Positions 10,584 through 40,672 of a DNA stretch of 64,000 nucleotides are shown one piece after another. Within the stretch, counting starts at the first letter, position 1, and each line of letters opens with the position of its first letter. The notes under the pieces were generated by a model. It ran no database searches and had not been told where the DNA came from. It was given only the letters and a program-made list of their open reading frames with translations. The translations under genes were made by a program, and so were the position numbers. Source of the stretch: Thermoplasmata archaeon (GTDB lineage: Archaea; Thermoplasmatota; Thermoplasmata; Thermoplasmatales; ARK-15); assembly GCA_023261755.1 (NCBI GenBank), contig JAGDXS010000019.1:653-64652 (forward strand). Direction: 5' to 3'.

Positions 10584-11917
10584 TTATTTGGATTAATCTT
10601 TCTTAAAATTAAGTCAGCAGCCATATTTATTACATCATAAAGATCCGACACTTCCGGGCAATATGCAATTTCCAGTGCGCTCAAATCTTCTGCAGAGGCC
10701 TTTTTTCTTATTGCAAGGGAAATGACATTTATTTTTGATGATGCATTTTTTCCTACTGCCTGAGCTCCTAGAATAGTGCCATTATTTTTATCACAAACTA
10801 TTTTTAGCGTTATTTCTTCACCGCCAGCATATTCAGGTCTGTCGAGTGTTTTTGCCCTTGCAGTTACGATCTGAAATTTTTCTTTTGCCTGGTTTTCCGT
10901 TAAGCCAACAGCTGCAACTTCTAAATTGCCGACCATGGAAACAAAGGTGCCAAGCGCTCCTGAATATGTTGCATCATGACCTGCCAAGTTTATACCAGCA
11001 ACTATGCCCTGCTTTGCAGCTGTTGTTGCAAGCTGAACAGGTGCATATGATCCATCAACATAATTCTTGGTAATAATGCAGTCTCCTGCAGCATATATAT
11101 CAGGATTCGATGTTTGCATTTTATCATTTACAACTATGAATGATCTATCCATGTTAACAATGTTTTTCAATATTTCAGTACTTGGCCTTACGCCTGTGGC
11201 AAGAATTATTGCATCTGCATTGAAAATAGAATCACCTGATCTTATGCCAATGATTCTGTTATTTTCAACAACAATTTCATCCACTTTTGAATTAAGGTGA
11301 ATTGAGATGCCAAATTTTTCTAATTCATTTTTAACAATTTCAGCCATTTCAGGATCTAGAACCCTAGGAAAAGGTTGAGGAAACATTTCAAACACATGAA
11401 CATTTAAATTCCATGATTTAAGTGCATATGCCATCTCAAGGCCTATGGCTCCTGCGCCTACAACAGAAACATTTTTTATATTTTTCTTAACAATGAAATC
11501 TTTTATAGAATTTGCATCCTCTAGCGTTTTTACTATGAAAACACCTTTATTTATGAATCCATCTGCATTCTTTATTTTAGGTATTAATGGCTCAGCACCT
11601 GCGGCATATAATAATTTATCATATTTGATTTCTTTAATTTCATTATTCTTTTTATTAAGAACTTTAATCTTTTTTTCTGATGCATTTATTTCTATCGCCT
11701 CATATTCGAGGAGAACATTAATTCTCCTTGTTCTTGGAAAAGGATGCTTCAGTTTAGAAAAATCATCCTTTCTTTCAAGAATCAAGGGTATTCCACAAGG
11801 TGAATAAGATTCATAACTGTGCTTTTCTATAATTGTTATTTCCTCCTCCCTGTTTAATGTGGTAATCCACCTTGTTGCATAAACACCGGCTGTGCCTAGG
11901 CCTATAATAACGATCAT
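10571..11917 (-). CDS. CoA-disulfide reductase / NADH oxidase family flavoprotein
   Basis: 448 aa; IIGLGTAG and VVGAGAIGLE dinucleotide folds, single redox Cys in YSPCGIP, YAAGDC. Confidence 0.85.
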   Translation of the reverse strand: MIVIIGLGTAGVYATRWITTLNREEEITIIEKHSYESYSPCGIPLILERKDDFSKLKHPFPRTRRINVLLEYEAIEINASEKKIKVLNKKNNEIKEIKYDKLLYAAGAEPLIPKIKNADGFINKGVFIVKTLEDANSIKDFIVKKNIKNVSVVGAGAIGLEMAYALKSWNLNVHVFEMFPQPFPRVLDPEMAEIVKNELEKFGISIHLNSKVDEIVVENNRIIGIRSGDSIFNADAIILATGVRPSTEILKNIVNMDRSFIVVNDKMQTSNPDIYAAGDCIITKNYVDGSYAPVQLATTAAKQGIVAGINLAGHDATYSGALGTFVSMVGNLEVAAVGLTENQAKEKFQIVTARAKTLDRPEYAGGEEITLKIVCDKNNGTILGAQAVGKNASSKINVISLAIRKKASAEDLSALEIAYCPEVSDLYDVINMAADLILRKINPNNYTF

Positions 11918-12024
11918 ATATGCACAATATTAAATAAAATAATAAAACTTTCTTATTTTATTTTGACAATTTTTAAAAAAATTTTCAGAAAAATATTAAA
12001 TATTAATTCAAATTTTGGCGCTCT

Positions 12025-13275
12025 ATGAGAGCAAAATCTGAATGGTCACGATTGAATGAAATAATGATACATAGGCCATCCGTTGAAATAGAATATGCTA
12101 TGCTGGCACCTAAACCTTTTCTTTTTGAAAGGGTTTTCAATGTTCAAAAAGCTATTAAAGAACATGAAAAGCTTGAAAATATACTAGTTGAAAATGGTGT
12201 AAAGGTAAGAAGGCTCGAGAATGAAATAATAGAAAAGGCCGATAAATTTGAATCATTCAGGAAAATCATCATAGATTTCCTTCTAGCAAAAGTTCATTTT
12301 TATGGTAAAATAGATGATTCAGAGGATGCGGAGGAAAATTTCAGAAAGAATATTGAATTTTTGGATAACAAGACAATTTTTGATTTAATGGTACTTGAAC
12401 CATCAATTATTTTAAGGAGCGATGGTTCAATTGAATATCCATCAGTTTATTCTAATCTGCCTTTGGCCAACCTCTATTTTATGAGGGATCAGCAGGCTGT
12501 GGCGGATAACGGAATAATAATAGGAAACATGAAAATGGAACAGAGGAAGAGGGAAATTGACATAACAAAATTGGTAATTGAGCATGTTTTCGGATTAAAG
12601 GACGCCTTTGAAATTAACAAGAGGGGGCATTTTGAGGGTGGAGATTTTATGCCTGCGGGATCATTTTCCTTGATAGGAATTGGATCAAGAACTGATTGGG
12701 AAGGGGCATACCAGGCAATATTTTCAGGTAAAATTGAGTCTGAAGAAGTACTCGTGGTTGAAAATCCCGTATATGAATTTGCAAAGGGAAACAAAATGGT
12801 TAACATGCATTTGGATACATATTTCAATATTGCAGGGGATGGGCTAGCTGTAACATCCATATACCTTGCAAAGAATGCGAAAGCTGTCTTATTTAAAAAA
12901 GAAAGCAAAGGCGACTATGTAAAAGAAGGTCATACTACATTATACGATTATCTAAAATCAAAGGATTTCAATTTCATAGATCTTTCTATTCCTGAGCAAT
13001 TGGCATATTCATCTAATTTTCTCACAATAAAGGATAGAAGAATAATCACAGTAAATGTAAAAAGGGTGATTGATAAACTTATCAATGAAAATGCATTTGA
13101 TAAACAAACAGAGGAAATTGTAAAATCTGAAATGAGCAAACTTGGAAATGAAATATTTCCAGAAAGATCAGATGTGAAGAAAGAGGGCATTGAATTTATA
13201 AATGCTGATCTTATAGAACTTACAGGTGGATATGGTGGAGCTCATTGCATGACGGCCACACTAGACAGGGCTTAA
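12025..13275 (+). CDS. arcA: arginine deiminase
   Basis: 416 aa; YFMRDQ, MHLDTYFN, C-terminal catalytic GGAHCMT. Confidence 0.9.
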   Translation: MRAKSEWSRLNEIMIHRPSVEIEYAMLAPKPFLFERVFNVQKAIKEHEKLENILVENGVKVRRLENEIIEKADKFESFRKIIIDFLLAKVHFYGKIDDSEDAEENFRKNIEFLDNKTIFDLMVLEPSIILRSDGSIEYPSVYSNLPLANLYFMRDQQAVADNGIIIGNMKMEQRKREIDITKLVIEHVFGLKDAFEINKRGHFEGGDFMPAGSFSLIGIGSRTDWEGAYQAIFSGKIESEEVLVVENPVYEFAKGNKMVNMHLDTYFNIAGDGLAVTSIYLAKNAKAVLFKKESKGDYVKEGHTTLYDYLKSKDFNFIDLSIPEQLAYSSNFLTIKDRRIITVNVKRVIDKLINENAFDKQTEEIVKSEMSKLGNEIFPERSDVKKEGIEFINADLIELTGGYGGAHCMTATLDRA

Positions 13276-27235: not shown

Positions 27236-27976
27236 ATGTTCAGAGGCGTTGATGTTGGAAGTACCACCACTAAAATTATTTTCATGGAAGATAATATTGT
27301 AGATAAGGAAATACTTCCAACAATAAAGTTCATTTATTCCCCGAGAAAAAATGAATTCATGGATGCAGTTTCAACAGGTTATGGGAGATTTACAATAAAC
27401 TCTAAAAAGGTAATTCCTGAAATAAGAGCGCATGTGCTCGGTGCACTTTACCAGACTGAGTATAGGGATTTTACACTTTTAGATATAGGTGGCCAGGATT
27501 ATAAAATAGTGTATGTGAAAAATGGTGTCATCCAGGATTTTTTAACAAACGACAAGTGTGCAGCAGGGACTGGCAGATTCCTCGAAAAGATGGTCCAGGT
27601 CCTTGATATTTCAATGGATGATCTTTCTAGGCATTTTCAGGATCCCGTAAAGCTAAATTCAACATGCACAGTATTTGCAGAAACGGAATTAATTTCAAAG
27701 ATGATGGAAGGTTATCCCAAAGAAAGGTTAATTTCTGGTGTAAATTACAGTGTTTTTGAAAGACTCAAGCCATTCCTAATGAGATTTAAATCGGAACATA
27801 TTATATTTACCGGAGGTGTGGCAAAAAATTTTGCCATAAGGGAAATTATTCAAAATGAACTCGGCGTTAATTTAATTGTTCCAGAAGAGCCTCAAGCAAA
27901 CGGCGCCATTGGTTGCGCTTATTATGCAAAGAAGTTAAATCTCAGAAATCTTTCAGTTCAAGCCTATAAATCTTGA
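27236..27976 (+). CDS. BcrAD/BadFG/HgdC-type ATPase (2-hydroxyacyl-CoA dehydratase activase-like)
   Basis: 246 aa; GVDVGSTTTK, DIGGQDYK, FTGGVAKN. Two conserved cluster-bridging Cys contexts: NDKCAAGTGRFLE and STCTVFAETE. Confidence 0.8.
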   Translation: MFRGVDVGSTTTKIIFMEDNIVDKEILPTIKFIYSPRKNEFMDAVSTGYGRFTINSKKVIPEIRAHVLGALYQTEYRDFTLLDIGGQDYKIVYVKNGVIQDFLTNDKCAAGTGRFLEKMVQVLDISMDDLSRHFQDPVKLNSTCTVFAETELISKMMEGYPKERLISGVNYSVFERLKPFLMRFKSEHIIFTGGVAKNFAIREIIQNELGVNLIVPEEPQANGAIGCAYYAKKLNLRNLSVQAYKS

Positions 27977-28784
27977 ATAGGTTCTCCTTAAGCTCATAGG
28001 AATATTTTTCAAGCAATTCTTTGTTTTCATTTTCAAGCATTTTGAATCTTTTAGGCACTGTTGTTATGTCCATTACTGCACCTTTTTTCATTGGATCGTC
28101 CAAAAAATCAGTTTCCATAAAAAACCTGAAGCCCTTGTTTATAGCCTCCCTTATGTTATCCCTGCTTGATATAACAGAGGGAAATATACCATGGTTCTCT
28201 TCTTCAAGAATAAGAGGTGGGCTAAAATGCTTTATTACAAAATTTTTGTCAATCCCAGACTTTTCGGCCATGATGGATAATTCGTTGAAAACCTTTTCAT
28301 CAGCTGATTCTGTATGGAGCACAACTGGTATTTTTTCTTTACCTGCTCTTTTTAAAGCATAAGATAAAATTTCATTTGAAACAATCCAAATATTTTCATC
28401 TACCTGAAAATGCGGTCTTCCTATTTCACCAACAGCATTAGCCTTTCCATCTTGAACATATGTAATCGCCAATTCAATTGCATCTAGGAAAAGTTCCTTT
28501 GCATTTTCTAATCCAATAATTTCACTTGATTTTATCAAATCTACAGGATATGGTCCTACAGTAACAAGAACATTCAAGGATGTTTCTTTCCTTACGAGAT
28601 CAGCTATCCTTACAATTCTCTCATATTGGTCCATGAAGTATTTTAAATCTACTGGTTTGTAAATTCCCGGAATGTTACAGAGATTAATGATCCTTCCGCC
28701 TTCCTTTTCAAACCTTTTTGCAGCAAGTACATTTTCACCATTTTCCTGAAGGTGGACATGGTTGTCAAAAACAGGATATGGCAA
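27942..28784 (-). CDS. TatD-related metal-dependent hydrolase
   Basis: 280 aa; N-terminal FDNHVHL and internal VVLHTES motifs. Confidence 0.65.
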   Translation of the reverse strand: MPYPVFDNHVHLQENGENVLAAKRFEKEGGRIINLCNIPGIYKPVDLKYFMDQYERIVRIADLVRKETSLNVLVTVGPYPVDLIKSSEIIGLENAKELFLDAIELAITYVQDGKANAVGEIGRPHFQVDENIWIVSNEILSYALKRAGKEKIPVVLHTESADEKVFNELSIMAEKSGIDKNFVIKHFSPPLILEEENHGIFPSVISSRDNIREAINKGFRFFMETDFLDDPMKKGAVMDITTVPKRFKMLENENKELLEKYSYELKENLFKIYRLELKDF

Positions 28785-28785
28785 T

Positions 28786-29706
28786 TCAATCCCTCCAGTA
28801 AGGTTCCCTCAATTTTACTGCAAGTTCAAATTTTTCTTTCAATTTTTCCTCATTTCCTGATTTTAATTCATCAAGGACAGGAACCAAATTATCATTCCTG
28901 AATATACATGGTTTCAATTTACCATCGTATGTAAAGCGCATTCTAGTGCAATTCTTGCAAAATTCAGTATTATGCATAGGCTTTACAAGCTCAATCTCGT
29001 ATTTAGACCCATTATTTTTTATTAAAAATTTATCCCTATTGTGCAATGGGTTCTTCCTTATTTCAGGATTAAAAGATCTTAAATATTTTTCAACATCGTC
29101 AAGAGGAACATGATATTTGATGTACCAAGGTGTTTTTTCACCCTCCACGGGGACCTCAAGTTCAATTATTTGTAGAACCATCTTTGAATTTTTAACAAAT
29201 TCCATCATTTCATTTATTTGGTTATCATTCAAACCTCTCATTAAAACCATGTTTATTTTTATTGGATTGAGTGGTGTTTTCAAGGATTCTTGAATCCCAT
29301 CCAAAACTCTAGGAAGAAAATCCATACCAGTAATTTTTTTGTATGTTTCTCTATCAAGAGTATGAAGGCTTATGTTGATTCTGTTTAATCCTGCATCATA
29401 AAGAGACCAGACCCTTGATTTTAAATATGTGCCATTAGTCGTTAAGCTGATATCATTAAAATATTTCTTAGATATCTTTATTATATCTTCTAGGTCTCCT
29501 CTTTCCAGTGGTTCTCCACCTGTAAACTTTATTTTTTTTATTCCCAAAGAGCTTACAACTTTAAACAGCGTTTCAAAATCTTCAGGAATTAAAATATCCT
29601 TTTCTCCCTTTATGCCTTCCCTGTGGCAGTAGAAGCAATTTAAGTTACATTCTTTTGTGACCGAAACCCTAATGCTGTTAACGGGCCTGCCGTATGAATC
29701 TATCAC
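28786..29706 (-). CDS. moaA: GTP 3',8-cyclase (molybdenum cofactor biosynthesis protein A)
   Basis: 306 aa; radical SAM CNLNCFYCH; C-terminal second cluster CKNCTRMRFTYDGKLKPC. Confidence 0.9.
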   Translation of the reverse strand: MIDSYGRPVNSIRVSVTKECNLNCFYCHREGIKGEKDILIPEDFETLFKVVSSLGIKKIKFTGGEPLERGDLEDIIKISKKYFNDISLTTNGTYLKSRVWSLYDAGLNRINISLHTLDRETYKKITGMDFLPRVLDGIQESLKTPLNPIKINMVLMRGLNDNQINEMMEFVKNSKMVLQIIELEVPVEGEKTPWYIKYHVPLDDVEKYLRSFNPEIRKNPLHNRDKFLIKNNGSKYEIELVKPMHNTEFCKNCTRMRFTYDGKLKPCIFRNDNLVPVLDELKSGNEEKLKEKFELAVKLREPYWRD

Positions 29707-30175: not shown

Positions 30176-30718
30176 TTAAAAATTGTCTAGATTTTTCTGA
30201 TTTCCTGTTTTTTCAGAAAAATCTCCAAAGAATGAAGGATCTAGGACTTCAAAGCCCTGACTTTTAAATGCATCGTCAAACCTGTGATCAGGGGTTACAA
30301 GAAAAACAAACATTGAATAATCATTTTTTAATGTTATCCCAAGCTTTCTCTTCACTTCATGGTAGTTTGAAGATCCAATGCAATCCTTGTATATTTGAAG
30401 CTGCCTTAGAGTTTCACCAAAGCTCTTTATGTGGCTTTTAATCTCAATCGCTATTTTTATCAGTAATTCTCTTTCAAGTTTAGGTATCGCAGTTTCTACA
30501 TTCAAAGTCAAAGATAAAACAGCATCGGGGAAAGCAATTCTGCATATTCTAGGCTCGCCAGTTATTTTCATGCTTTTTATCTCAGCCTTAAGAGATCCAC
30601 TTAAAAAATATTTCAAAAAAAATTTGGATAATTTTTCGTAATTTCCTAGGACAAGAATATTAATTTTATCATGAATTTCGTTAAAATCATCTTCATCGCT
30701 GTATCTTATTCCCTTCAT
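30176..30718 (-). CDS. hypothetical protein with PD-(D/E)xK / RecB-like nuclease motifs
   Basis: 180 aa from ATG 30718. AFPDAVLSL (PD), then IAIEIKS (ExK) about 27 residues later, then LRQLQIY (QxxxY). Starts 5 nt after the ilvE stop. Confidence 0.5.
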   Translation of the reverse strand: MKGIRYSDEDDFNEIHDKINILVLGNYEKLSKFFLKYFLSGSLKAEIKSMKITGEPRICRIAFPDAVLSLTLNVETAIPKLERELLIKIAIEIKSHIKSFGETLRQLQIYKDCIGSSNYHEVKRKLGITLKNDYSMFVFLVTPDHRFDDAFKSQGFEVLDPSFFGDFSEKTGNQKNLDNF

Positions 30719-30723
30719 ATTGA

Positions 30724-31626
30724 TCAAATGTATGTAAGCCAGTTATTGTGGGATTTCTCTTTTCCATGAACAATATCCATATACCTATTTTTAATTGCAA
30801 CTGTAATTTTTCCAGGGTTTCCATCTCCTATTCTTATGCCATCTATATTAACTATTGGCGTTATTTCTGCAGCTGTTCCGGAGAAAAATACTTCATTGCT
30901 CACATAAAGCTCTTCCTTGTGTATGTCCCTTTCAATGACATTATATCCTAGATCCCTTGAAATATTCATTACCGTATCCCTAGTAATACCTTCAAGAATA
31001 TCAGAACTTAGTCCGGGTGAAATTACATTGTTACCTTTAACTATGAATATATTCTCTCCAGGTCCTTCTGCAACAGAACCATTATCTGTTAAAAGTATTG
31101 CTTCATCATATCCTGAATACCTTGCCTCTAGATGTGCAATTATAGAATTCAAATAATTTCCACTTGCCTTTGCGCTAACAGGTAGTATATTAGAATTAAT
31201 CCTTTTCCATGAGGATATTTTGCATTTAACTCCGTTCAACTCTGTTAGATATTCTTTGAATGGAACAGCAGCAATGAATACGCTTATTTTCTTTTTAAAA
31301 GGTGAAAGGCCTATGGTATCATCGTTATAGAATGCAAATGGCCTTATGTAACAGTTACTAAGATTATTCTTTTTTACAACTTCTATTATTGCATTTTTTA
31401 TTTCATCCTTCGTGTATTTCAAATCCATGTAATAAATCTTAGCTGACCTGAAAAATCTGTTTATGTGATCATCCAACCTGAATATGGCAGTTCCCTTATC
31501 CGTTTCGTATGCCCTAATGCCTTCAAAAATTCCTGAGCCATATTGCAAAGAATGTGTAAGAATTGGAACTTTTGCATCGTTGTACTGGATTAATTCACCA
31601 TCAAGCCATACTTTGAGGTCTTTCAT
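30724..31626 (-). CDS. ilvE: branched-chain amino acid aminotransferase
   Basis: Fold-type IV PLP enzyme: EGIRAYE, PLP-Lys context SAKASGNYLNS, GITRD. Start taken at MKDLKVWLDG (31626); the ORF track extends to 31665. Confidence 0.9.
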   Translation of the reverse strand: MKDLKVWLDGELIQYNDAKVPILTHSLQYGSGIFEGIRAYETDKGTAIFRLDDHINRFFRSAKIYYMDLKYTKDEIKNAIIEVVKKNNLSNCYIRPFAFYNDDTIGLSPFKKKISVFIAAVPFKEYLTELNGVKCKISSWKRINSNILPVSAKASGNYLNSIIAHLEARYSGYDEAILLTDNGSVAEGPGENIFIVKGNNVISPGLSSDILEGITRDTVMNISRDLGYNVIERDIHKEELYVSNEVFFSGTAAEITPIVNIDGIRIGDGNPGKITVAIKNRYMDIVHGKEKSHNNWLTYI

Positions 31627-31694
31627 GATTATTAGATAAATGAAATCGTTTAAAATATTTTTCATGCATTAGTTAAAATATTTTTTAATTTGAA

Positions 31695-32576
31695 TTAATC
31701 CATGAATGTCTCAACTATATTCGCTATCTCTTTTATTGCTTTTGATGCTTCTGATTCTGGTGAAAATTCTATTAGTGTTTTCCTTTGTACCATGGATTTC
31801 GCAACATTTTTGTCGTATGGTATTCTTCCTATTATTTCAAGATCATTTTGCCTTGCAAAATCGTCTATTTCATGAAAATTTTCATTTAAATTATATTTGT
31901 TTACAACAATATATGATTTAATTCTGAAATGTTCAGCAAGGTAAAATGCTCTTTTAAGATCGCTTAAGCTCGATTTAGTTGGCTCTGCAATTAATATTGC
32001 ATGTGAGGCCCCACTCATTGAAGCTATCACCTGGCACCCTATACCTGCTGCGGAATCTACTATTATATTTTTAACCAAACCATCTTTTAGCCATGATCTA
32101 GCTATATTTTTTTCCTCAGTTACAAGCTTACCTGAATTTGGTTGACCGACATCGAGTTCAGAGCTTACAAAAGGACCATATTTTGTTTTACCAATCTTTA
32201 TCCATCCAGAAAGATTATTCTTTTTTATGGAAATAACCTGCCTTGGGCATATTACCTTGCATGCTCCGCAACCTTCGCATAAAAATTCTTTGATTTTTGG
32301 GAAATTATTTTCTTTTGATATTGCTTCATATGTGCATACTTCCTGGCATAGGAAACATTGAATGCATCCTGAATAGTCAATTTTAGCTATGCTCTTTTCC
32401 CTGTATTCTATCTCCTTTTCCCAGGAATTAACATTGAATATTAGATGCAGATTGGGAGCTTCTGCATCTGCATCTACAATTGCAATTTTCTTCTCAGACA
32501 GAAGAACTGATAATGATGATGATAAAGTACTTTTACCAACTCCACCCTTTCCGCTTGCTATTACTATTTCTGCCAT
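31695..32576 (-). CDS. MinD/ParA-type P-loop ATPase with inserted 2x[4Fe-4S] ferredoxin domain
   Basis: 293 aa; deviant Walker A SGKGGVGKST; CIQCFLCQEVC and CEGCGACKVICP. Confidence 0.85.
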   Translation of the reverse strand: MAEIVIASGKGGVGKSTLSSSLSVLLSEKKIAIVDADAEAPNLHLIFNVNSWEKEIEYREKSIAKIDYSGCIQCFLCQEVCTYEAISKENNFPKIKEFLCEGCGACKVICPRQVISIKKNNLSGWIKIGKTKYGPFVSSELDVGQPNSGKLVTEEKNIARSWLKDGLVKNIIVDSAAGIGCQVIASMSGASHAILIAEPTKSSLSDLKRAFYLAEHFRIKSYIVVNKYNLNENFHEIDDFARQNDLEIIGRIPYDKNVAKSMVQRKTLIEFSPESEASKAIKEIANIVETFMD

Positions 32577-33415
32577 AGAAGATCCATCACCCTTTCATAA
32601 ACATTATAAAATTCTTTTGCTGCATTGCTTTCAGGATATAAATCTACCACAGGGATGCCCTTTATATAGCTATCTACAACTTCATCGCTAAAAGGTATTT
32701 TTCCGATTATATCATAATCAATGTCAATATTTTCTGAAGTGAGATCAAATCTATTTATTATTACATAGCCTTTAATATTAAGCTTTTTAAGAAGATTCAT
32801 GATCATATTAAGATCGTGAATGCCAAGTGGTGTTGGCTCGGTAACCACAAGGGCAAATTTTGAATTTTCAAGTGCTGCTGCCACATGGTTTCCTGTTCCG
32901 GCAGACGTATCATAAATTTTTAGATCATCATTTAAAGAATCTGCAATACTTCTTGCTTGTATTACAAGAGGATATGATCTTTCCTCGCCTTCCTTTAGCA
33001 TGCCTGTTATCAATGTCAGATTATCATTTATATTTGTTTTATAAATACTTCCTATTATTTTTTTATCATCTTCTATGGCATTTGAAGGGCAAACTAGCTG
33101 GCAAGTTCTACATCCTGAGCATAGTGTAGGCATCAGAAATGGATAACCTTCTTTAAACATGACGATGGCGCTTTCAGAGCAATTTTGCCTGCATAAATCG
33201 CATTTTGTGCATTTTGAATAAACAAATTTTGGCCTGAAAATAAAACTTTTTTTCTCATTTTTTAAATTACTTGAAAGAAGAATATGATCATTTGGGCACT
33301 CAACATCCGCATCCACAAGCGTTACCTTGAATTTTTTTGAAAATAATGTGGCAAGGTTAATTGCAACTGTACTTTTACCTGTACCACCCTTGCCACCTGT
33401 AACTGCAATTTTCAT
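32564..33415 (-). CDS. MinD/ParA-type P-loop ATPase with inserted 2x[4Fe-4S] ferredoxin domain
   Basis: 283 aa; GGKGGTGKST; CTKCDLCRQNC and CSGCRTCQLVCP. Overlaps the downstream paralog by 13 nt. Confidence 0.85.
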   Translation of the reverse strand: MKIAVTGGKGGTGKSTVAINLATLFSKKFKVTLVDADVECPNDHILLSSNLKNEKKSFIFRPKFVYSKCTKCDLCRQNCSESAIVMFKEGYPFLMPTLCSGCRTCQLVCPSNAIEDDKKIIGSIYKTNINDNLTLITGMLKEGEERSYPLVIQARSIADSLNDDLKIYDTSAGTGNHVAAALENSKFALVVTEPTPLGIHDLNMIMNLLKKLNIKGYVIINRFDLTSENIDIDYDIIGKIPFSDEVVDSYIKGIPVVDLYPESNAAKEFYNVYERVMDLLWQK

Positions 33416-33424
33416 AAGATTGAA

Positions 33425-33841
33425 TCACCAGGGACCGCCTCTTCCTCTACCCATACCTCTTCCCCTTCCCATTCCATGACCACCTGGACCACCCATACCT
33501 GTGGAAGGTTGTAATTTACCAGATAAATATGCATTTATTGCCTCCTCCACAATCATGGGTGGGCATTCGCGCATATCGATTCTTCCCATTGAAAGTACCT
33601 GGAATGAGTTAGGACCTATTGCACCTGCAATAAGAACATTGCATCCTGAATTTATAACTGCCTGAGCGGCCTGAATGCCCGCTCCACTTCCTGCCATGTA
33701 CCCAGGATTTTGTATAACCTGGACATTTTTGATGGACCCATTTTCATAATCCACTAAAGTGAAAGTTGGACATCTGCCAAAATTAGCACTAACATAATCC
33801 TTCAAACCACCAGGTCCAGAAGTGGCTAAACATATCTTCAT
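33425..33841 (-). CDS. NifX/NifB-C-terminal-like (dinitrogenase FeMo-cofactor-binding fold) protein with Gly-Arg tail
   Basis: 138 aa; NFGRCPTFTLVDYENG...NVLIAGAIGPN; tail GMGGPGGHGMGRGRGMGRGRGGPW. Confidence 0.8.
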   Translation of the reverse strand: MKICLATSGPGGLKDYVSANFGRCPTFTLVDYENGSIKNVQVIQNPGYMAGSGAGIQAAQAVINSGCNVLIAGAIGPNSFQVLSMGRIDMRECPPMIVEEAINAYLSGKLQPSTGMGGPGGHGMGRGRGMGRGRGGPW

Positions 33842-33975
33842 ATAAAAATCACCATTGACGGAAATACAAAAAGATAAATAAATTTTGTTAAGATTTTAGT
33901 ATAATTAAAACGCTTCTTCGAGCGAAATTTATAATTTTATTAGAAAAATTTTAAATAAAAAAATCAATTACATTC

Positions 33976-33986
33976 AGGTGGAGGAG
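33976..33986 (+). promoter_or_regulatory. strong Shine-Dalgarno AGGTGGAGGAG for the first cassette gene
   Basis: Lies 5 nt upstream of ATG 33992. Confidence 0.55.
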
Positions 33987-33991
33987 ATAAC

Positions 33992-34540
33992 ATGGGTGAT
34001 TGGTCATTAGAAAATTTAGAGAATCTAAAAGAGGAGCCTGAAAGAAAGTATGTAGAAACAAGAACTTTATTAATTTTAGCTGTGACAGGAATATTTCTAG
34101 GGGTATCTTTAATTACACCATTTGCCCATGGAGACAATATTTCGTATGATAATATTTCAGATGCAAAGGTGACAGTATATAATTTATATGGGATAATAGT
34201 TGGAACAATAGATGGAAAATGGACTTTTGCAGTGGATACGTCCAACAATCAGTTTTATTTAAATAATCAGAATACTTTCTTCTATACCCATCATTCGAGT
34301 GCATGGTTATGGAGCTCTGATATTAATAACCTATACGTCTCTACCACAAATAATGAGCTGTATGCTACTTATATTTGGTCGGTTTCCTCTGCGTTGAGTA
34401 GTATTTCAGGTTCCACAATTAATCAGGTCAGTCTAAATCCTGGAAATGTAGTCAATATTTACATAGAGCAGTATGGTCAAGTGCAATATAATAATGATTT
34501 ACTATTACCTGTTGATGTATCTTTAGATCTAGATATTTGA
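33992..34540 (+). CDS. hypothetical N-terminally anchored surface protein
   Basis: 182 aa; charged N-terminus, one TM (TLLILAVTGIFLGVSLI), then an Asn/Ser/Thr/Tyr-rich domain with NIS sequons. No family recognised. Confidence 0.6.
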   Translation: MGDWSLENLENLKEEPERKYVETRTLLILAVTGIFLGVSLITPFAHGDNISYDNISDAKVTVYNLYGIIVGTIDGKWTFAVDTSNNQFYLNNQNTFFYTHHSSAWLWSSDINNLYVSTTNNELYATYIWSVSSALSSISGSTINQVSLNPGNVVNIYIEQYGQVQYNNDLLLPVDVSLDLDI

Positions 34541-34582
34541 AAAATTTTTTGAATTTTTCATTATTTTTTTTTGGTGGTATAA

Positions 34583-35428
34583 ATGAAAAAACAAACATAT
34601 AAAAACAAGAAAAATAGTATGAATAAAATTATAAATAATTTACTCGTTATAATATTAATAGGCTTTGGGGCCGGCATTGGATTTTTGCCTATGATGGAAT
34701 ATTATAGCGGGCCATACCATGCTGAAACTTATTATAATAGTATACGTGCCGGTTCAGGATTCACATTCGTAGGAACGGTAGGTGGTTATAATAATTCTAG
34801 CAGATCTGGATTTACCTATGGCTTTTTAATCAATGTCACATTTTTAAACACCAATGAAGCACAGGTTTACATTACTGTATTTCAACTCCCTGAAAATGCC
34901 GGTTATTTTAATATTTTTCTTTTGCCAAAAAATCCTTTTTATCCAGAACCTATCAAAATAGATCAGTTTAATTACAAAACTAGCATTTCTTCATCTCCTT
35001 TACTTAAACTACTTTTCCTAAGCACTTATAGCAGTGATACATTAATTGGAAACATAACGTTAAATAGGACAAATTTCAATATGCAACCTTATCCTAACTT
35101 TGGAATGCCCAACCTTAATTATATTGTTGTTAATGGCATTAATACGCCTTTTTTTTACATCTTATATGAGAATTTTAGGGTTCTGGGTTATTTAGCTGAA
35201 ATGCCACATTTAATAAATTTCTTACCTTTAATTAAAGATATCTATCCTGGAGCTAATTATTCTAAATTGAACTGTCAGATTTTTACTATTCAATTTGGCT
35301 CAAGCAATACTGCACCACCACAAAATTGGGCTGCATTCTATATGTGGGGATTTGGGATGGCATTTCCATTGGACATTATAATTATAGCAGCTGGAATAAT
35401 TCTATATGTTATGAGATTCAGAAGGTGA
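34583..35428 (+). CDS. hypothetical surface protein with N- and C-terminal TM anchors
   Basis: 281 aa; LLVIILIGFGAGIGFL... and ...DIIIIAAGIILYVMRFRR; sequons NNS, NVT, NIT, NRT, NYS. GGTGG (34573-34577) lies upstream of the ATG. Confidence 0.6.
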   Translation: MKKQTYKNKKNSMNKIINNLLVIILIGFGAGIGFLPMMEYYSGPYHAETYYNSIRAGSGFTFVGTVGGYNNSSRSGFTYGFLINVTFLNTNEAQVYITVFQLPENAGYFNIFLLPKNPFYPEPIKIDQFNYKTSISSSPLLKLLFLSTYSSDTLIGNITLNRTNFNMQPYPNFGMPNLNYIVVNGINTPFFYILYENFRVLGYLAEMPHLINFLPLIKDIYPGANYSKLNCQIFTIQFGSSNTAPPQNWAAFYMWGFGMAFPLDIIIIAAGIILYVMRFRR

Positions 35429-35432
35429 ACTG

Positions 35433-36260
35433 ATGAAACTTATTTTTGAACATTTATTTAAATATTTGAATAATAACCTAATCCTGAAAGACATAGATTT
35501 TTCATTAGAATCAAGAAAGCTAGCAATTATAGGGCACAATGGAAGTGGTAAAACTACACTTTTATCTTTAATTGCGGGTCTATTAAAACCTGATGAAGGA
35601 TATGTAAGTATTGACGGAATAGAACCATTTTTCGAAAGGGAAAAAATTGTAAAACACTTATCTTTTATATTTGAAAAAGGTAATTATTCTTATAATATGA
35701 GTGTAGGTAATTATGTTAAAATTCTTAAAAAAATAAGAGATGAAAAATATGTTAATGATATAGCAGATATTTTAGAATTATCAAAATTTGAGAATGCAAA
35801 TATGAAGGAATTATCAACAGGCCAAGCTCAGCTGGTTTATCTTTTATCAGTCCTTACTTCCAATAAAAAAATCATAATTTTGGATGAACCCTTTAGCCAT
35901 CTTGACCCTGGTAGGTATATAAAAATAACTAAATTTATTCAGAATATGGAAAAAGACTTCATATTAGCTACCCAGAGTTTTAATGAGGCGGAGGAATTAT
36001 GCGATGAATATATAGTACTAAAAGAAGGAGAAATATTATGGAAAGGATCAAAAAAAGATTTATACAAGAATAATTTATTTGAAATTTACTTAAATGAAAA
36101 TAATATTCCAGGCCTAAATGTCATATCAGATATGGGGAAAGTTTTAATTGCAGAGGCTAGAATTGATTATTTAGTAAAATTGTTAGAAGATGGAAAAATA
36201 TTAGGTTTTAAAAGAGCGGGTTTAAGGAGGATATATGGCGAAATTAACTTATTCAACTGA
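35433..36260 (+). CDS. ABC transporter ATP-binding protein (degenerate signature)
   Basis: 275 aa; Walker A GHNGSGKTT, signature LSTGQ (instead of LSGGQ), Walker B IIILDEPFSHLD. AGGTGA (35423-35428) overlaps the upstream stop. Confidence 0.85.
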   Translation: MKLIFEHLFKYLNNNLILKDIDFSLESRKLAIIGHNGSGKTTLLSLIAGLLKPDEGYVSIDGIEPFFEREKIVKHLSFIFEKGNYSYNMSVGNYVKILKKIRDEKYVNDIADILELSKFENANMKELSTGQAQLVYLLSVLTSNKKIIILDEPFSHLDPGRYIKITKFIQNMEKDFILATQSFNEAEELCDEYIVLKEGEILWKGSKKDLYKNNLFEIYLNENNIPGLNVISDMGKVLIAEARIDYLVKLLEDGKILGFKRAGLRRIYGEINLFN

Positions 36261-36924
36261 ATGGTATCTTAAAACAATAATCATCCATCCTGTTTATGAA
36301 ATAATTTTAGTATTTTCTATTTTAATCGAACTATTATTATTAGATTTAAAATATTTTAATGATTTTTTAATATTAATGATTATTTTTCTTCTTCCTTTAT
36401 TTCAAACATTGGTTGGGACGGGTATTTTTAGGGATATGCATTTGAAAGTTTTTGAAATTAGCCTTATGGAAGGATATTTCAATATAACATTTTCAAAGTC
36501 AGTTGCTCTATTAATTTCATATATTCCATTCTTTATTGCAGAATTATTGATAATGGTAATATTTCATATCACCTCTTTTTTTGTTCCTTTGGTTCTCAGT
36601 TCTCTTTTAGCTATTGTAATCTCTTTACTTCTTTCTATTTCATCCAATGCCTCTTTTTCATTTACAGCTCTGGCAATATTTATGTTTATATTTCCAATAG
36701 GTGTTCAAATATATATTCAAAATTTGGCTCAATTAAATCAACAACCTGATTTAATTACATCATCCATTTCCTATATCCTTAGTCCTTTAGTGGCATACCA
36801 ATATTGGAAATTAAGATTTATAGAGCTTAGCCCATTTTATGGATTTTTGTTAGATGTTATTTTTATTATAATCCTTTACGTACTATATTTATTAATTTCT
36901 ATGAGGCATCAAATCAAACCCTAG
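36235..36924 (+). CDS. polytopic membrane protein (presumed transporter partner)
   Basis: 229 aa, 5-6 TM. AAGGAGG (36224-36230) lies 4 nt upstream of the ATG. 26-nt overlap with the ATPase gene. Confidence 0.6.
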   Translation: MAKLTYSTEWYLKTIIIHPVYEIILVFSILIELLLLDLKYFNDFLILMIIFLLPLFQTLVGTGIFRDMHLKVFEISLMEGYFNITFSKSVALLISYIPFFIAELLIMVIFHITSFFVPLVLSSLLAIVISLLLSISSNASFSFTALAIFMFIFPIGVQIYIQNLAQLNQQPDLITSSISYILSPLVAYQYWKLRFIELSPFYGFLLDVIFIIILYVLYLLISMRHQIKP

Positions 36925-37012
36925 TATTTTGTAAATTTACCAATTTTCTTTATTTTTATAATTATAAATTAATTATAAGCTTAATGCATTAAAATATTAG
37001 ATAATCGCACTT

Positions 37013-37029
37013 AAAAAAAAATAAAAAAA
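37013..37029 (-). terminator. oligo-T tract after the DUF5320-like gene
   Basis: The plus strand reads aaaaaaaaataaaaaaa, i.e. T7-A-T9 on the minus strand directly after the stop at 37031. Archaeal termination typically uses oligo-T. Confidence 0.4.
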
Positions 37030-37030
37030 T

Positions 37031-37297
37031 TTATTTTTCTAGGTCTTCTAGTCTTTTTCTTATATAATTCATTCTTTCTTGAAGATATTTTAGTTCATTT
37101 TCAAGTGCGGTTTTTTCATCCACTGGCTGAAATCCATAGTTAGTTCCTGTAGCCATATTTTGATTCCAAGGATATTGAGTGTAATTCTGATATGGATAGT
37201 TCCATCTCCACCCCCTTGGCAGACCTGTCCAAGGGCAATAGCCTAGAGTAGCTCCCCATCCTCTACCTCTTCCACCATACCATCCTGGTCCATACAT
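37031..37297 (-). CDS. DUF5320-like Gly/Arg/Trp-rich protein with C-terminal coiled coil
   Basis: 88 aa; MYGPGWYGGRGRGWGATLGYCPWTGLPRGWRW... then EKTALENELKYLQERMNYIRKRLEDLEK. Confidence 0.7.
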   Translation of the reverse strand: MYGPGWYGGRGRGWGATLGYCPWTGLPRGWRWNYPYQNYTQYPWNQNMATGTNYGFQPVDEKTALENELKYLQERMNYIRKRLEDLEK

Positions 37298-37394: not shown

Positions 37395-38084
37395 ATGTAT
37401 TTAATTAATATGTTAAAGTTTTTCATCGGAATAGCATTTCTTGCTATTGCATCATATCAGGATATCCGTGAAAGAGAAATTACTGCAATGATCTGGATAT
37501 TCATGGGGATCACATCAGCCATATTACTTTTTATTGCCTATTCTCAAGATATTTTCTATGTAATAACTATATTAGCAATATTCTTCCTATGGTTTTTAGA
37601 TATTGAAAAATATGAAAAATACTTGGATATCCTTTCATTAATAATTTTGATTTCAATACTTTTTTTTACAAAAGAAAATTTAGTATTTTTTGTTGATGGT
37701 ATACTTATAATATTTTATAAATACCTTTATAATTATGGCATTCTAGGTGGAAAAGCAGATGCGAGGGCCATTATGGCAATTACATTGCTCAATCCATTTT
37801 ATCCCGAACTCTTCTTAAACTTTTATGCAAATAGATCAATAGTTTCAATCATTTTTCCATATTCCCTCGAGGTTCTCTTTTATGCAGTTATAATCAATGC
37901 CATTGTATTCATTATTTATTTATTTTTCATTAATATAAAAAATGGTGCAAAATTTTTACCCAAAAAGATTTTCACTCATATATACAGTAATGGTGAATGG
38001 ATCAAATACCAAACACCATTTATACTTTCAATCTTAATAGCATTTATAATATCATACTTCTTTGATCTTTTTTATTTATTCTAG
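37395..38084 (+). CDS. A24-family prepilin/preflagellin peptidase-like membrane protein
   Basis: 229 aa polytopic. First Asp context SYQDIREREI; second Asp in LGGKADARAIM (a variant of GxGDxK). Confidence 0.55.
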   Translation: MYLINMLKFFIGIAFLAIASYQDIREREITAMIWIFMGITSAILLFIAYSQDIFYVITILAIFFLWFLDIEKYEKYLDILSLIILISILFFTKENLVFFVDGILIIFYKYLYNYGILGGKADARAIMAITLLNPFYPELFLNFYANRSIVSIIFPYSLEVLFYAVIINAIVFIIYLFFINIKNGAKFLPKKIFTHIYSNGEWIKYQTPFILSILIAFIISYFFDLFYLF

Positions 38085-39556: not shown

Positions 39557-40672
39557 CTATTTTATAACATCCACACCATGCCTTTCTTTAAGTTCCTGCT
39601 CTGTGATCTTGCCCATAATCTGTTTTGATTTAACGCCAGTTGCAACTATCATTACATTAATTTTTCCCTCAAATTCAGGATCTATAGCAGCTCCCCAAAT
39701 AATTCTTGCCTTATCACCTACACGTTTGTGTACTTCTTCAACAATGGTTTGTGCCTCTGAAACAGTCATTTCAGGACCACCTATCACATGAACAAGGACA
39801 CCTGTAGCAGAAGAAATATCCACCTCAAGAAGAGGTGAATTAACTGCATCTTCAAGTGCTTCCTGGGCGCGTTCATCTCCTGCGGATTCGCTTTCGCCAA
39901 CTCCTATCATAGCAACTCCGCCATCTTTCATTATCGTCTTTAGATCGTTGAAGTCCAGATTAACCAATCCTGGTTTGGTGATCATTTCTGTGAGACCTTT
40001 TATAGCACGCATAAGAACAGTATCTGCAACCTTAAATGCATCATTCAATGGCATTCTTGGCACAAGCTCAAGTAATTTATCATTTGGTATTGTTATTACT
40101 GTATCTGCTGCTTCTCTGAGTTTATCAAGACCATAGAGTGCATTTTCCATCCTTGTTCTTCCCTCTGATGTAAACGGGAGCGTGCATACAGCTATTGTAA
40201 GTGCCCCAAGTTCTTTTGCTATTTTTGCAACGTATGGAGCAGAGCCTGTACCTGTTCCACCACCCAATCCACAAGTTATAAAAACAATATCAGATCCTTG
40301 AAGGGTGCTTCTTATTTTATCTTCCGCCTCTCTTGCAGCTTCTTCACCCACCTGGGGTATTGCACCTGCACCAAGGCCTCTTGTAATTCTCTTACCAAGA
40401 AGTATTTTCTTTTGGGCTTTTGTTATAAGCAAATGTTGTGCATCTGTATTTGCCGCAATAAGTTCAGCGCCTATTACCCCCTCTTCCATGATCCTGTTTA
40501 TAGTATTTGATCCTCCACCACCACATCCTATTATTTTTATTACAGTTTTCAAACCCCTTAATATTTCTTCCAGCTCCTTATCCTCTTCAGATTCCGTAAT
40601 GTTTTCATTACTTTTATATTGATTTTCATTTACGTATGATTTTGATAACACATCCTTTAGAAGGGATTTCAT
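39557..40672 (-). CDS. ftsZ: cell division GTPase FtsZ
   Basis: 371 aa; GCGGGGSN, tubulin signature [12 protein letters not shown]. Confidence 0.95.

Follow-up and report, generated by a model that had tools for sequence, protein, structure and literature searches.

What is the function of a gene cluster that places two ATPases carrying ferredoxin motifs beside a NifX-like protein, in archaeal DNA whose scanned ORFs include no nif-like genes? The cluster lies in the window analysed here, a 64-kb stretch from a Thermoplasmata MAG close to Aciduliprofundum. A sequence-only reading had joined it to a more distant DUF5320 gene and proposed either that it carries and inserts metalloclusters or that it works as a redox-gated ATPase system, ideas with which the evidence below is consistent. 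The features that it reported are present: the ORF list of the window has all four ORFs on the minus strand, and the deviant Walker A and ferredoxin motifs are where they were said to be. Its four family assignments also stand, since profile HMMs for CbiA, ParA/NUBPL, Fer4, Nitro_FeMo-Co and DUF5320 all match. The features of the locus are as follows.

37031..37297, minus strand: DUF5320-family protein, 88 aa (PF17253, E=1.7e-07)
33425..33841, minus strand: NifX-like, IssA-clade Nitro_FeMo-Co protein, 138 aa (PF02579, E=3.2e-19)
33428..33481, minus strand: core of the cationic GRG tail of the NifX-like protein, GHGMGRGRGMGRGRGGPW (IssA-clade tail chemistry, PMC5524996)
32564..33415, minus strand: ATPase-B, type-B MinD-family, 283 aa (Pfam CbiA, ParA and Fer4 families; type-B HMM)
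31695..32576, minus strand: ATPase-A, type-A MinD-family, 293 aa (Pfam, motifs, type-A HMM)
30724..31665, minus strand: class IV aminotransferase, IlvE-like (Pfam Aminotran_4, E=3.2e-52)

Three of these genes form a packed trio (31695-33841, minus strand), in which the NifX-like gene comes first and is followed by ATPase-B and ATPase-A. A gap of 9 nt separates the end of the NifX-like gene from the start of ATPase-B, and the reading frames of the two ATPases share a 13-nt overlap. The DUF5320 ORF, also on the minus strand, resides 3189 nt upstream of the trio; as four plus-strand genes intervene, it constitutes a separate transcription unit. The aminotransferase gene starts 29 nt past ATPase-A and thus may be co-transcribed with the trio. 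Its counterpart follows the trio in the relative L089 (phmmer E=9.5e-134), none does so in the L087, L088 or A. boonei loci, and it is probably outside the module functionally. The window also has a MoaA-like gene 2 kb downstream of the trio and, ~6 kb from it, an ORF (39557-40672) assigned as FtsZ-like from reading its translation.

The two ATPases, paralogues at 31% identity (E=1e-42), match Pfam CbiA (1.7e-18 and 3.5e-18), ParA/NUBPL (1.4e-17 and 2.1e-15) and several Fer4 families. ATPase-A scores 501 bits with the type-A HMM versus 169 with type B, and ATPase-B scores 543 bits with type B versus 189 with type A. The Walker A sequence is GKGGVGKST in ATPase-A (aa 9-17) and GKGGTGKST in ATPase-B (aa 8-16). 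Each protein has two ferredoxin motifs: CIQCFLCQEVC (aa 71-81) and CEGCGACKVIC-P (aa 100-110) in ATPase-A, and CTKCDLCRQNC (aa 69-79) and CSGCRTCQLVC-P (aa 99-109) in ATPase-B. ATPase-A also carries DADAEAPN, DSAAGIGCQV and a Cys181 that is invariant among 54 aligned homologues, and ATPase-B carries DADVECPN and DTSAGTG. The ferredoxin insert spans ~50 residues (2x[4Fe-4S]) between switch I and switch II, and structure searches found no solved structure that carries it. The AF2 model of ATPase-A (pLDDT 93.9) adopts a MinD-like fold, with archaeal MinD as the best structural match.

Comparison with NCBIfam-type HMMs leaves both ATPases under every curated family cut-off. For MinD proper, the minD_arch model gives 97.8 and 64.2 bits against a cut-off of 201.75, and its match is broken into two stretches because the ferredoxin insert interrupts it. 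NifH is rejected at 45.8 bits against 394, with no nitrogenase-like partner among the window ORFs scanned, and CfbC at 42 bits against 402. The same holds for a Mrp/NBP35/ApbC carrier (ApbC, 31.8 bits against 348; MrpORP, 65 at most against 450). We know of no biochemical function for any ferredoxin-insert MinD ATPase.

Could these proteins nevertheless act as MinD does? In line with a proposal made for the Desulfovibrio ORP complex, the A/B ATPases might regulate cell division or positioning in space, in the manner of MinD, with redox-sensitive clusters as the gate. Archaeal MinD provides the best sequence match as well as the best structural one, D. vulgaris shows morphological defects when orp expression is lost, MrpORP is polar (PMC6345978, PMC8359166), and the FtsZ-like ORF is close by. 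However, the minD_arch scores are far under the cut-off, no MinE- or MinC-like partners are found nearby, and the AF2 model of ATPase-A has no C-terminal extension past the last core helix. The obligatory partner of these ATPases across phyla is a metallocluster-binding protein, and a role as spatial regulators is very improbable.

The strength of this partnership is evident from other genomes. A Nitro_FeMo-Co gene adjoins a ferredoxin-insert ATPase gene in 17/17 independent genome loci, which represent about 12 phyla, compared to 3/63 controls (Fisher p=1e-14). For DUF5320, the family is present in 6/17 of these loci and in 0/63 controls (p=4e-5), and a count of adjacent or fused copies gives 7/17. 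The association of the three families is far above chance, and the recurrence across archaea and anaerobic bacteria that had been suggested is real. Exactly one type-A and one type-B ATPase are present in 26/26 loci (the window and 25 others). The gene order NifX, ATPase-B, ATPase-A is the same in A. boonei, L087, L088 and L089. Because both members of the pair have a signature-lysine Walker A, they would be expected to associate as a MinD/NifH-like sandwich heterodimer that depends on ATP. The placement of a ferredoxin domain between switch I and switch II suggests a coupling of the ATPase cycle (binding and hydrolysis) to either electron transfer or cluster exchange.

The likely client of this heterodimer is the NifX-like protein. 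Its ORF (33425-33841) contains NFGRCPTFTLVD and encodes a globular domain (aa 1-112) followed by a 26-aa cationic Gly/Arg/Met tail, STGMGGPGGHGMGRGRGMGRGRGGPW. The tail has 13 Gly, 4 Arg, zero acidic residues, a single aromatic residue, no Cys and a pI of 12. Of 121 clade members (the window protein and 120 homologues), 103 have tails with at least two GRG-type motifs. The best solved relative is MTH1175 (PDB 1eo1), with E=1.2e-19 and an alignment that covers aa 1-125; D. gigas ORP (2wfb) matches with E=1.3e-11. The carrier belongs to the IssA clade. Its domain is 57% identical to that of the short-tail Thermococcus paralogue versus 40% for the IssA-type paralogue, and on these identities it is the orthologue of the short-tailed Thermococcales protein, not of IssA itself. 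IssA (PF2025) of Pyrococcus furiosus consists of a Nitro_FeMo-Co domain and a cationic tail. It binds and stores thioferrate, forming nanoparticles, and in a reducing environment it is able to restore the [4Fe-4S] cluster of ferredoxin; IssA-type members with shortened tails are on record (PMC5524996). By homology to IssA, the globular domain of the window protein may hold an Fe-S cluster or a thioferrate-like polymer, and its Gly/Arg tail may stabilise the Fe-S material that is held.

Homology to ORP could lead elsewhere. The D. gigas protein is cited as binding [S2MoS2CuS2MoS2]3-, a Mo-Cu-S rather than an Fe-S cluster (cited in PMC6345978). If the NifX-like protein similarly bound thiomolybdate/thiotungstate-(Cu), the module would buffer or detoxify Mo/W/Cu-sulfide in sulfidic habitats, which would suit the MoaA-like gene downstream of the trio and the two MoeA genes upstream of the trio in L089. 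This explanation is quite improbable, given that ORP is a more distant relative of the NifX-like protein than MTH1175 and the IssA clade are, that recurrent neighbours are related to iron and not to Mo or Cu, and that Mo-cofactor genes are not conserved beside the other loci.

The iron-related neighbours are varied. L086 has Fur and DUF364 within the same array, the deltaproteobacterial locus L005 has NifU_N/IscU and a MrpORP that, at 510 bits, clears the cut-off of 450, L087 and L088 have a FeS_assembly_P neighbour, and in L019 a CDF (MamB/FieF-like) domain is fused to NifX. In M. voltae grown on FeS2, the tandem Fe-S proteins Mvol_0691 and Mvol_0692, annotated as 'cobyrinic acid a,c-diamide synthase' and putative counterparts of the ATPase pair, are up 5.0x and 2.6x, and the flanking IssA-like Mvol_0689 and Mvol_0693 are up 2.3x and 4.3x (supplement of PMC8516115). 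Storage or trafficking of Fe-S is the role to which the Fur, IscU, MrpORP, DUF59 and CDF neighbours and this co-induction point. The 'oxygen-compatible' setting ascribed to the locus by the sequence-only reading is not supported: Pfam scans of the ORFs found no aerobic-respiration markers in the window, the MAG is close to Aciduliprofundum, and one relative preserves the synteny between the trio and the window's Pyr_redox_2 (CoADR-type) gene.

A more specialised role is also conceivable, in which the module is an analogue of NifH plus NifX/NafY, a metallocluster carrier/insertase that serves one client enzyme instead of a general Fe-S store. The NifX-like protein would then carry a preformed complex cluster, and the A/B ATPase would drive its insertion into an apo-enzyme such as a neighbouring radical SAM protein. 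The Nitro_FeMo-Co family does include the cofactor carriers NifX, NafY and NifB (PMC5524996, PMC8351635), NifH-type proteins are among the structural neighbours of the ATPase-A model, and a radical SAM gene recurs beside the ATPase pair in Thermococcales, A. boonei and L087. However, the window has no homologue of this radical SAM neighbour, and its scanned ORFs include no nitrogenase or nitrogenase-like genes. The neighbours tied most directly to function are the general iron/Fe-S genes, and cationic tails are better suited to binding polyanions than discrete cofactors. Overall, a dedicated insertase is rather unlikely.

The remaining component, the DUF5320 protein, matches PF17253 at 32.8 bits (gathering score 27) over model positions 34-99 only. 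It represents a divergent subtype that is missing the canonical N-terminal MPxGDGTGP segment. Its N-terminal half is rich in Gly, Arg, Trp and Tyr, with one Cys and zero acidic residues, and carries the motif GWGATLGYCPWTGLPRGWRW, of which the LGYCPWTGLPRGWRW portion spans aa 18-32. The C-terminal part (aa 61-88) is a coiled coil. A Cys motif, GWGA[TR]LGYCPWTG, is common to this N-terminus and the Thermococcales IssA-type tail. The GWGARLGYCPWTG sequence of the tails, taken from Thermococcus IssA-type proteins and not from P. furiosus IssA itself, is identical in the DUF5320 members P0242 and P0245 and is retained at 11/13 positions in the window protein. No mention of this common motif was found in the literature.

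Does DUF5320 belong to the module? Its gene could be functionally unrelated to the trio in this genome and lie 3.2 kb away by coincidence. It is outside the trio operon, with four opposite-strand genes between, it lacks the canonical start, and no DUF5320 gene is found within 8 kb of the A. boonei trio. Against this, the gene is directly downstream of the trio in the close relatives L087 and L088, many homologues fuse NifX, a GRG linker and a DUF5320 coiled coil in a single chain, and the family is absent from all of the control loci counted above. We would put the chance of a rare family falling within about 5 kb at ~1% for a genome of 1.5-2 Mb, a figure that is estimated, not computed. Coincidence is unlikely, and the membership that had been claimed for DUF5320 rests on relatives and fusions and not on the arrangement in the window.

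Taken together, the locus is best read as the Thermoplasmata (Aciduliprofundum-related) version of an ancient, anaerobe-associated Fe-S handling module for ATP-gated deposition or mobilisation of Fe-S, whose bacterial form is the ORP core and whose carrier belongs to the IssA clade. We assign this reading a probability slightly above one half. It builds on homology, motif conservation, obligate A+B pairing, synteny, NifX-DUF5320 fusions and iron-related neighbours. Within such a module, DUF5320 would act in trans as a co-scaffold whose coiled coil, an oligomerisation stalk, presents a Cys/Trp/Arg/Gly segment like that of the IssA tail. The net effect would be that Fe-S is deposited into a store and/or mobilised from it, reductively and under ATP gating, for low-redox cluster biogenesis. 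Whether the module loads or unloads, and what part electron transfer plays, is pure conjecture. A bolder proposal, which we offer tentatively and consider doubtful, is that DUF5320 proteins are free-standing IssA tails oligomerised by their coiled coils. Together with cationic-tailed NifX-like proteins and the A/B heterodimer, they would form a widespread machine, driven by ATP and electrons, that builds and dissolves protein-coated, thioferrate-like iron-sulfide stores in anaerobic archaea and bacteria. If true, the long-unexplained ORP complex and IssA would acquire one common mechanism.

How does this module compare to known systems? MinD, FleN, Soj, NifH and ApbC are SIMIBI-class deviant Walker A ATPases. 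The window ATPases resemble them in core fold (TM about 0.7 on target), in the signature lysine and in the logic of an ATP-sandwich dimer, and differ by the additional ferredoxin insert. The earlier view that no member of this family combination has an established function overlooked work on ORP (PMC6345978) and IssA (PMC5524996), although it is right for the ATPase mechanism and for the role of the complex, which are unresolved (PMC8359166).

The NifX-like protein and IssA both have an IPR003731/PF02579 globular domain and a Gly-rich, cationic, high-pI C-terminal tail. However, the IssA tail is about 70 aa of aromatic/Arg/Gly repeats with a single Cys, whereas the 26-aa tail in the window is without the Cys/aromatic block. 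The Cys motif and the acid-free W/G/R/Y composition of Thermococcus IssA-type tails are found instead on the window DUF5320 protein, a separate chain that also has a coiled coil. No link between IssA and ferredoxin-insert ATPases was found in the IssA papers. MTH1175 of Methanothermobacter, a structural-genomics protein with no assigned function that is named as IssA-type (PMC5524996), has little tail compared to the GRG-tailed window protein.

The ORP complex is the closest parallel. In D. vulgaris, the ATPases Orp3 (DVU2103) and Orp4 (DVU2104) are of the MinD type and each carry two 4Fe-4S motifs, and Orp8 (DVU2108) is the Nitro_FeMo-Co 'orange protein'; the three co-purify, and MrpORP is a donor of clusters to them (PMC6345978). 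Expression of the orp genes is confined to low redox potential (PMC8359166), and the ORP literature leans to a link with cell division (PMC6345978, PMC8359166). Both systems encode a paralogous pair of MinD-type ATPases, each with two [4Fe-4S] ferredoxin motifs, together with a single-domain Nitro_FeMo-Co protein, and both are tied to an anaerobic lifestyle. The likeness to Orp3 and Orp4 is drawn from their published description, with sequence comparison made through L005, whose A/B pair is 37-38% identical to ATPase-A. The ORP cluster also has MrpORP (Orp9), in which a Mrp/NBP35 domain is fused to a Di-Nase domain. The window has none: its proteins score 30-65 bits with the MrpORP HMM (cut-off 450), and a P-loop HMM matches only the two ferredoxin-insert ATPases in the 64 kb. 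Sigma-54 is, to our knowledge, not present in archaea. The archaeal locus has neither the redox-dependent OrpR/sigma-54 control nor the divergent two-operon layout of Desulfovibrio, where Orp5 is also part of the complex (PMC6345978, PMC8359166). Its carrier, with a cationic GRG tail, is closer to MTH1175 than to ORP, and the DUF5320 partner further sets it apart. In its central components, the window module matches the Desulfovibrio ORP core (Orp3/Orp4/Orp8), of which it is the archaeal counterpart, and belongs to a kind that is already known.

Four minus-strand open reading frames (ORFs) were described in the sequence-only reading as an Fe-S ATPase module. All four are present where that reading placed them, and each family that it named (CbiA/ParA with Fer4, Nitro_FeMo-Co and DUF5320) is matched by profile HMMs in Pfam. 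The trio, its neighbor and the DUF5320 gene are as follows:

33425-33841, minus strand, NifX-like gene, 138 aa (Pfam Nitro_FeMo-Co, 3.2e-19)
32564-33415, minus strand, ATPase-B (Pfam CbiA, ParA and several Fer4 families)
31695-32576, minus strand, ATPase-A (Pfam CbiA, ParA and several Fer4 families)
Minus strand, starting 29 nt past ATPase-A, class IV aminotransferase
Minus strand, 3189 nt upstream of the trio, DUF5320 protein, 88 aa (Pfam DUF5320, 1.7e-07, exceeding the gathering score)

The NifX-like gene ends 9 nt before ATPase-B starts, and the two ATPase genes overlap by 13 nt. Their products are paralogues (31% identity, E=1e-42) that share a deviant Walker A motif with its signature lysine (GKGGxGKST), a DxDxxxPN switch-I-like element, two CxxCxxCxxxC motifs and a D[ST][SA]AGxG Walker B/switch II. 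Four plus-strand genes (33992-36924), which encode an ABC ATPase, a permease-like polytopic membrane protein and two proteins that lack family matches and have apparent signal or transmembrane features (membrane or secreted), separate the trio from the DUF5320 gene, which therefore belongs to a transcription unit of its own. In A. boonei, too, an ABC ATPase homologue (E=4.9e-21) lies just upstream of the trio. Past the aminotransferase, in the downstream direction, an ORF of 183 aa (30176-30727, minus strand) has no family match, and a 229-aa polytopic membrane ORF adjoining the DUF5320 gene (37395-38084, plus strand) has only a weak match to the preflagellin peptidase FlaK (23.9 bits versus a cut-off of 330). 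A promoter/terminator scan, which applies a sigma-70 model to an archaeal host, gives 52 sites versus 47 expected and no terminators. A PADLOC scan for defence systems gives no matches.

A Thermoplasmata metagenome-assembled genome encodes a protein with 99% identity to ATPase-A, whose nearest named relatives are found in Aciduliprofundum and then in Thermococcales. The large window ORFs that were scanned have ordinary functions (pyruvate kinase, acyl-CoA dehydrogenases, thiolase, arginine deiminase, gyrase, MutL, HMG-CoA reductase, a B12-radical SAM enzyme and a CoADR-type Pyr_redox_2 enzyme), and no marker of aerobic respiration was found among them. The Pyr_redox_2/Pyr_redox_dim (CoADR/NSR-type) gene (10571-11917, minus strand) lies 20 kb away from the trio. 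In the homologous locus L089, its orthologue (11839-13185, E=2e-167) directly follows the trio and an Aminotran_4 aminotransferase. This arrangement suggests that the module was once linked to sulfur/CoA-disulfide redox metabolism. Because of this orthologue and the lack of respiratory markers, the contrast once drawn between the module and an oxygen-compatible metabolism is unsupported.

A MoaA-like radical SAM ORF (28786-29706, minus strand) and a TatD-like hydrolase ORF (27942-28784, minus strand), both identified by translation, lie 2-4 kb downstream of the trio, and two MoeA genes lie upstream of the trio in L089. The MoaA-like ORF and the MoeA genes may reflect a link to Mo/W cofactors or may be a coincidence. 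A nitrogenase-related module was also considered and rejected, as no nif genes were found among the window ORFs scanned and every NifH-type score is far below its cut-off.

A ferredoxin-insert MinD ATPase pair, IssA-clade carriers and DUF5320 proteins form one conserved genetic unit, as comparisons across more than ten phyla show. A profile of both paralogues was searched against one genome per species, and all counts of loci refer to the matches listed. True full-length ferredoxin-insert ATPases occur at at least 17 loci, from bacteria (Dehalococcoidia, Desulfobacteraceae, Bacteroidales, Spirochaetes, Clostridia, Phycisphaerales and Thermovirgaceae) and archaea (Nitrososphaerota, Micrarchaeota, Methanomethylicota, Bathyarchaeia and Methanobacterium). 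Most loci in the same scan carry generic MinD/ParA/Mrp ATPases, and 63 of these serve as controls, with ORFs typed by HMMs built for this analysis. Among the matches listed, at least one Nitro_FeMo-Co ORF flanks the ATPases at 17 of 17 true loci versus 3 of 63 controls (Fisher p=1e-14), which bears out the co-occurrence that had been proposed for these two families. The usual gene order is NifX, B, A, NifX.

Each of 26 loci (the window and 25 fetched loci) has a single ATPase of type A and a single one of type B, so the A/B duplication is ancient. The simplest reading of this pairing is an obligate heterodimer, which agrees with Orp3 and Orp4 co-purifying in Desulfovibrio. Across 54 type-A homologues, no variation is seen at any of the eight ferredoxin cysteines or in the nucleotide-binding motifs.

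The AlphaFold2 model of ATPase-A (mean pLDDT 93.9) most closely resembles archaeal MinD in Foldseek searches (1hyq, 1ion and 1g3q; TM ~0.73-0.76 on the target), with FleN/FlhG, Soj, NifH and ApbC ranked below. This fold would fit an unlikely rival explanation in which the ATPases have a MinD-like role in division. None of the solved chains carries a ferredoxin insert, and NCBIfam curated cut-offs for MinD, NifH, CfbC, ApbC and MrpORP are all missed by a wide margin. The ferredoxin-insert ATPases are thus a distinct family in the SIMIBI class, which we take to be the COG1149 type, an assignment supported by the JGI name 'MinD superfamily P-loop ATPase'. Type-A subunits also have an invariant cysteine in the 54 homologues, Cys181 in DSAAGIGCQV (window 32037-32057, aa 174-181), seven residues past the Walker B Asp, where type-B subunits have GTGNHV or GTSCPV. 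In NifH switch II, the cluster ligand Cys132 follows Asp125 at this same spacing, and Cys181 could ligate a cluster or metal between the subunits.

A phmmer search of 1.84 billion representatives with the DUF5320 protein returns only a small subfamily of 18 matches with no named proteins. The location of the DUF5320 gene in the window might indicate that it is unrelated to the trio, but its position elsewhere points to membership. In two Thermoplasmata relatives (L087 and L088; ATPase-A 73% and 67% identical), the order is FeS_assembly_P, NifX, ATPase-B, ATPase-A, DUF5320, with DUF5320 starting ~60 nt past ATPase-A. Standalone or fused DUF5320 ORFs adjoin the module at 7 of 17 scan loci versus 0 of 63 controls among the matches listed. 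The Bipolaricaulota locus L086 carries an array of DUF5320, NifX::DUF5320, a 73-aa W/G/R/Cys peptide, NifX, B, A, Fur and DUF364. Approximately one-quarter of the best 120 NifX-like homologues combine Nitro_FeMo-Co, a Gly/Arg/Met linker and the DUF5320 coiled coil in a single polypeptide. Such fusions are a classic link, and DUF5320 is most probably part of the module although displaced in the window. Zinc-ribbon modules also recur, fused past NifX-GRG tails, fused to the DUF5320 N-terminal segment or as small neighboring ORFs (proteins P0172 and P0194; L004 8873-9103, L005 3951-4157 and L009 3943-4155).

Among solved structures, MTH1175 is the best match to the NifX-like protein (1.2e-19), followed by D. 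gigas ORP (1.3e-11). MTH1175 is considered an IssA-type protein, with IssA itself consisting of a Nitro_FeMo-Co domain and a cationic Gly- and aromatic-rich tail with a sole Cys (PMC5524996). [quoted passage not shown] The window NifX-like protein has a cationic tail (26 aa with 13 Gly, 4 Arg and no acidic residues, pI 12), and such tails occur in 103 of 121 clade members (this protein and its 120 best homologues). Its globular domain is the orthologue of the short-tailed Thermococcales paralogue (57% identity) and not of the adjacent IssA-type protein (40%).

Thermococcus IssA-type tails end in ...GRGWGARLGYCPWTG(T/M)P..., and their 13-mer GWGARLGYCPWTG is identical in the DUF5320-subfamily proteins P0242 and P0245. 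The window DUF5320 protein has GWGATLGYCPWTGLPRGWRW, 11 of 13 positions being identical (BLASTP E=1e-5). Its N-terminal half is also tail-like in composition (G12, R4, W6, Y8, one Cys and no Asp/Glu). The IssA architecture is thus split in the window: the NifX-like domain bears a short GRG tail, and the segment that resembles the IssA tail is carried by the coiled-coil DUF5320 protein. No earlier mention of this DUF5320/IssA-tail link was found in the literature searched. A profile search with the Cys-motif alignment gives 6 matches among low-complexity candidates, and P. furiosus IssA is not among them. The cloning primer for P. furiosus IssA (PF2025) encodes MKIAIPTNGGG, matching the Thermococcus N-terminus, and the tail is highly conserved within Thermococcales (PMC5524996), with the 13-mer itself being read from Thermococcus proteins.

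Free-standing W/G/R/Y-rich peptides of 60-75 aa also exist (P0254, P0259-P0263 and the 73-aa L086 8557-8778), one of them inside the Bipolaricaulota module. They have a single Cys motif, ...GYCPWTGLPRGWRW or ...PYPFC..LPRGWW, with no coiled coil or Pfam match, and look like free IssA-tail peptides.

The ATPases connect the trio to a second system. The D. vulgaris ATPases Orp3 and Orp4 are MinD-like, have two [4Fe-4S] motifs each and co-purify with the Nitro_FeMo-Co orange protein Orp8 (PMC6345978). In Desulfobacteraceae, locus L005 combines a curated MrpORP match (510 bits versus a cut-off of 450) with NifU_N/IscU, additional NifX genes and a NifX::DUF5320 fusion; these genes lie immediately upstream of a B/A pair that is 37-38% identical to window ATPase-A. 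The location of this pair beside MrpORP makes the window trio the archaeal counterpart of the ORP core, a likeness drawn from the published Orp3/Orp4/Orp8 descriptions and the L005 sequences. MrpORP passes clusters to Orp3, Orp4 and Orp8 (PMC6345978). Unlike ORP, the window trio has neither MrpORP nor OrpR.

Less likely readings are that the module is a client-specific cofactor insertase or that it handles Mo/W-Cu-sulfide, as in ORP. The neighbors of the module across phyla are iron-homeostasis and Fe-S-assembly genes: Fur in L086, IscU and MrpORP in L005, DUF59/FeS_assembly_P in L087 and L088, and a MamB/FieF-like CDF transporter fused to a NifX domain in L019. The L019 gene (10164-11450) directly follows its ATPase pair. 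No homologue of FeS_assembly_P, DUF134, CGGC, Fur, DUF364 or the recurrent radical SAM protein was found within the window. DUF134 and this radical SAM gene, both absent from the window, recur beside the module in Thermococcales, Bipolaricaulota and Thermoplasmata (L001 10072-10425, L084 12868-13215, L085 12174-12542, L086 7283-7618 and L087 11368-11562). DUF134 is a putative DNA-binding protein, sometimes with an N-terminal GRGRGR stretch, and may be a module regulator.

Published proteomics add expression evidence. The name 'cobyrinic acid a,c-diamide synthase' is a generic one for CbiA proteins. Two M. voltae proteins so annotated, Mvol_0691 and Mvol_0692, are listed with Fe-S motif proteins (PMC8516115), and we infer that they are a putative A/B pair. 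In FeS2-grown cells they are up 5.0-fold and 2.6-fold, and the flanking IssA-like Mvol_0689 and Mvol_0693 are up 2.3-fold and 4.3-fold (PMC8516115 supplement). The available portions of that report draw no connection between the Mvol_0689-0693 proteins, and its values support co-regulation of the putative pair with IssA-like proteins.

The comparisons show the homology and motifs, the pairing of A with B, the synteny, the fusions and the neighbors related to iron; a storage and mobilisation mechanism is the best estimate proposed for them. The A/B pair would form an ATP-sandwich heterodimer with four [4Fe-4S] clusters, which would link its nucleotide state to the transfer of electrons or clusters in a NifH-type manner. 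The client would be Fe-S material that sits on the NifX-like domain, with the cationic tails of this protein and of DUF5320 wrapped around it and the DUF5320 coiled coil multimerising the scaffold. ATP-gated reduction might then lay down ferric sulfide or, more plausibly, release it from the store for use in cluster assembly.

Iron and sulfide storage and trafficking in strict anaerobes are poorly understood. The DUF5320/IssA-tail motif and the NifX-DUF5320 fusions yield a concrete, biochemically testable hypothesis for COG1149-type ATPases and PF17253. A unified mechanism, if confirmed, would be of high significance, versus moderate significance for the locus now. The ORP complex (described from 2007-2011 on) and IssA (from 2017 on) have been studied separately, and both are still without a mechanism. 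The window locus is an archaeal member of a known, mechanistically unsolved module and is ordinary rather than a new kind of system. What this analysis adds is the motif shared by DUF5320 and IssA tails, the support for co-regulation drawn from published proteomics, and the joining of ORP-type ATPases, IssA-clade carriers and DUF5320 in one unit.
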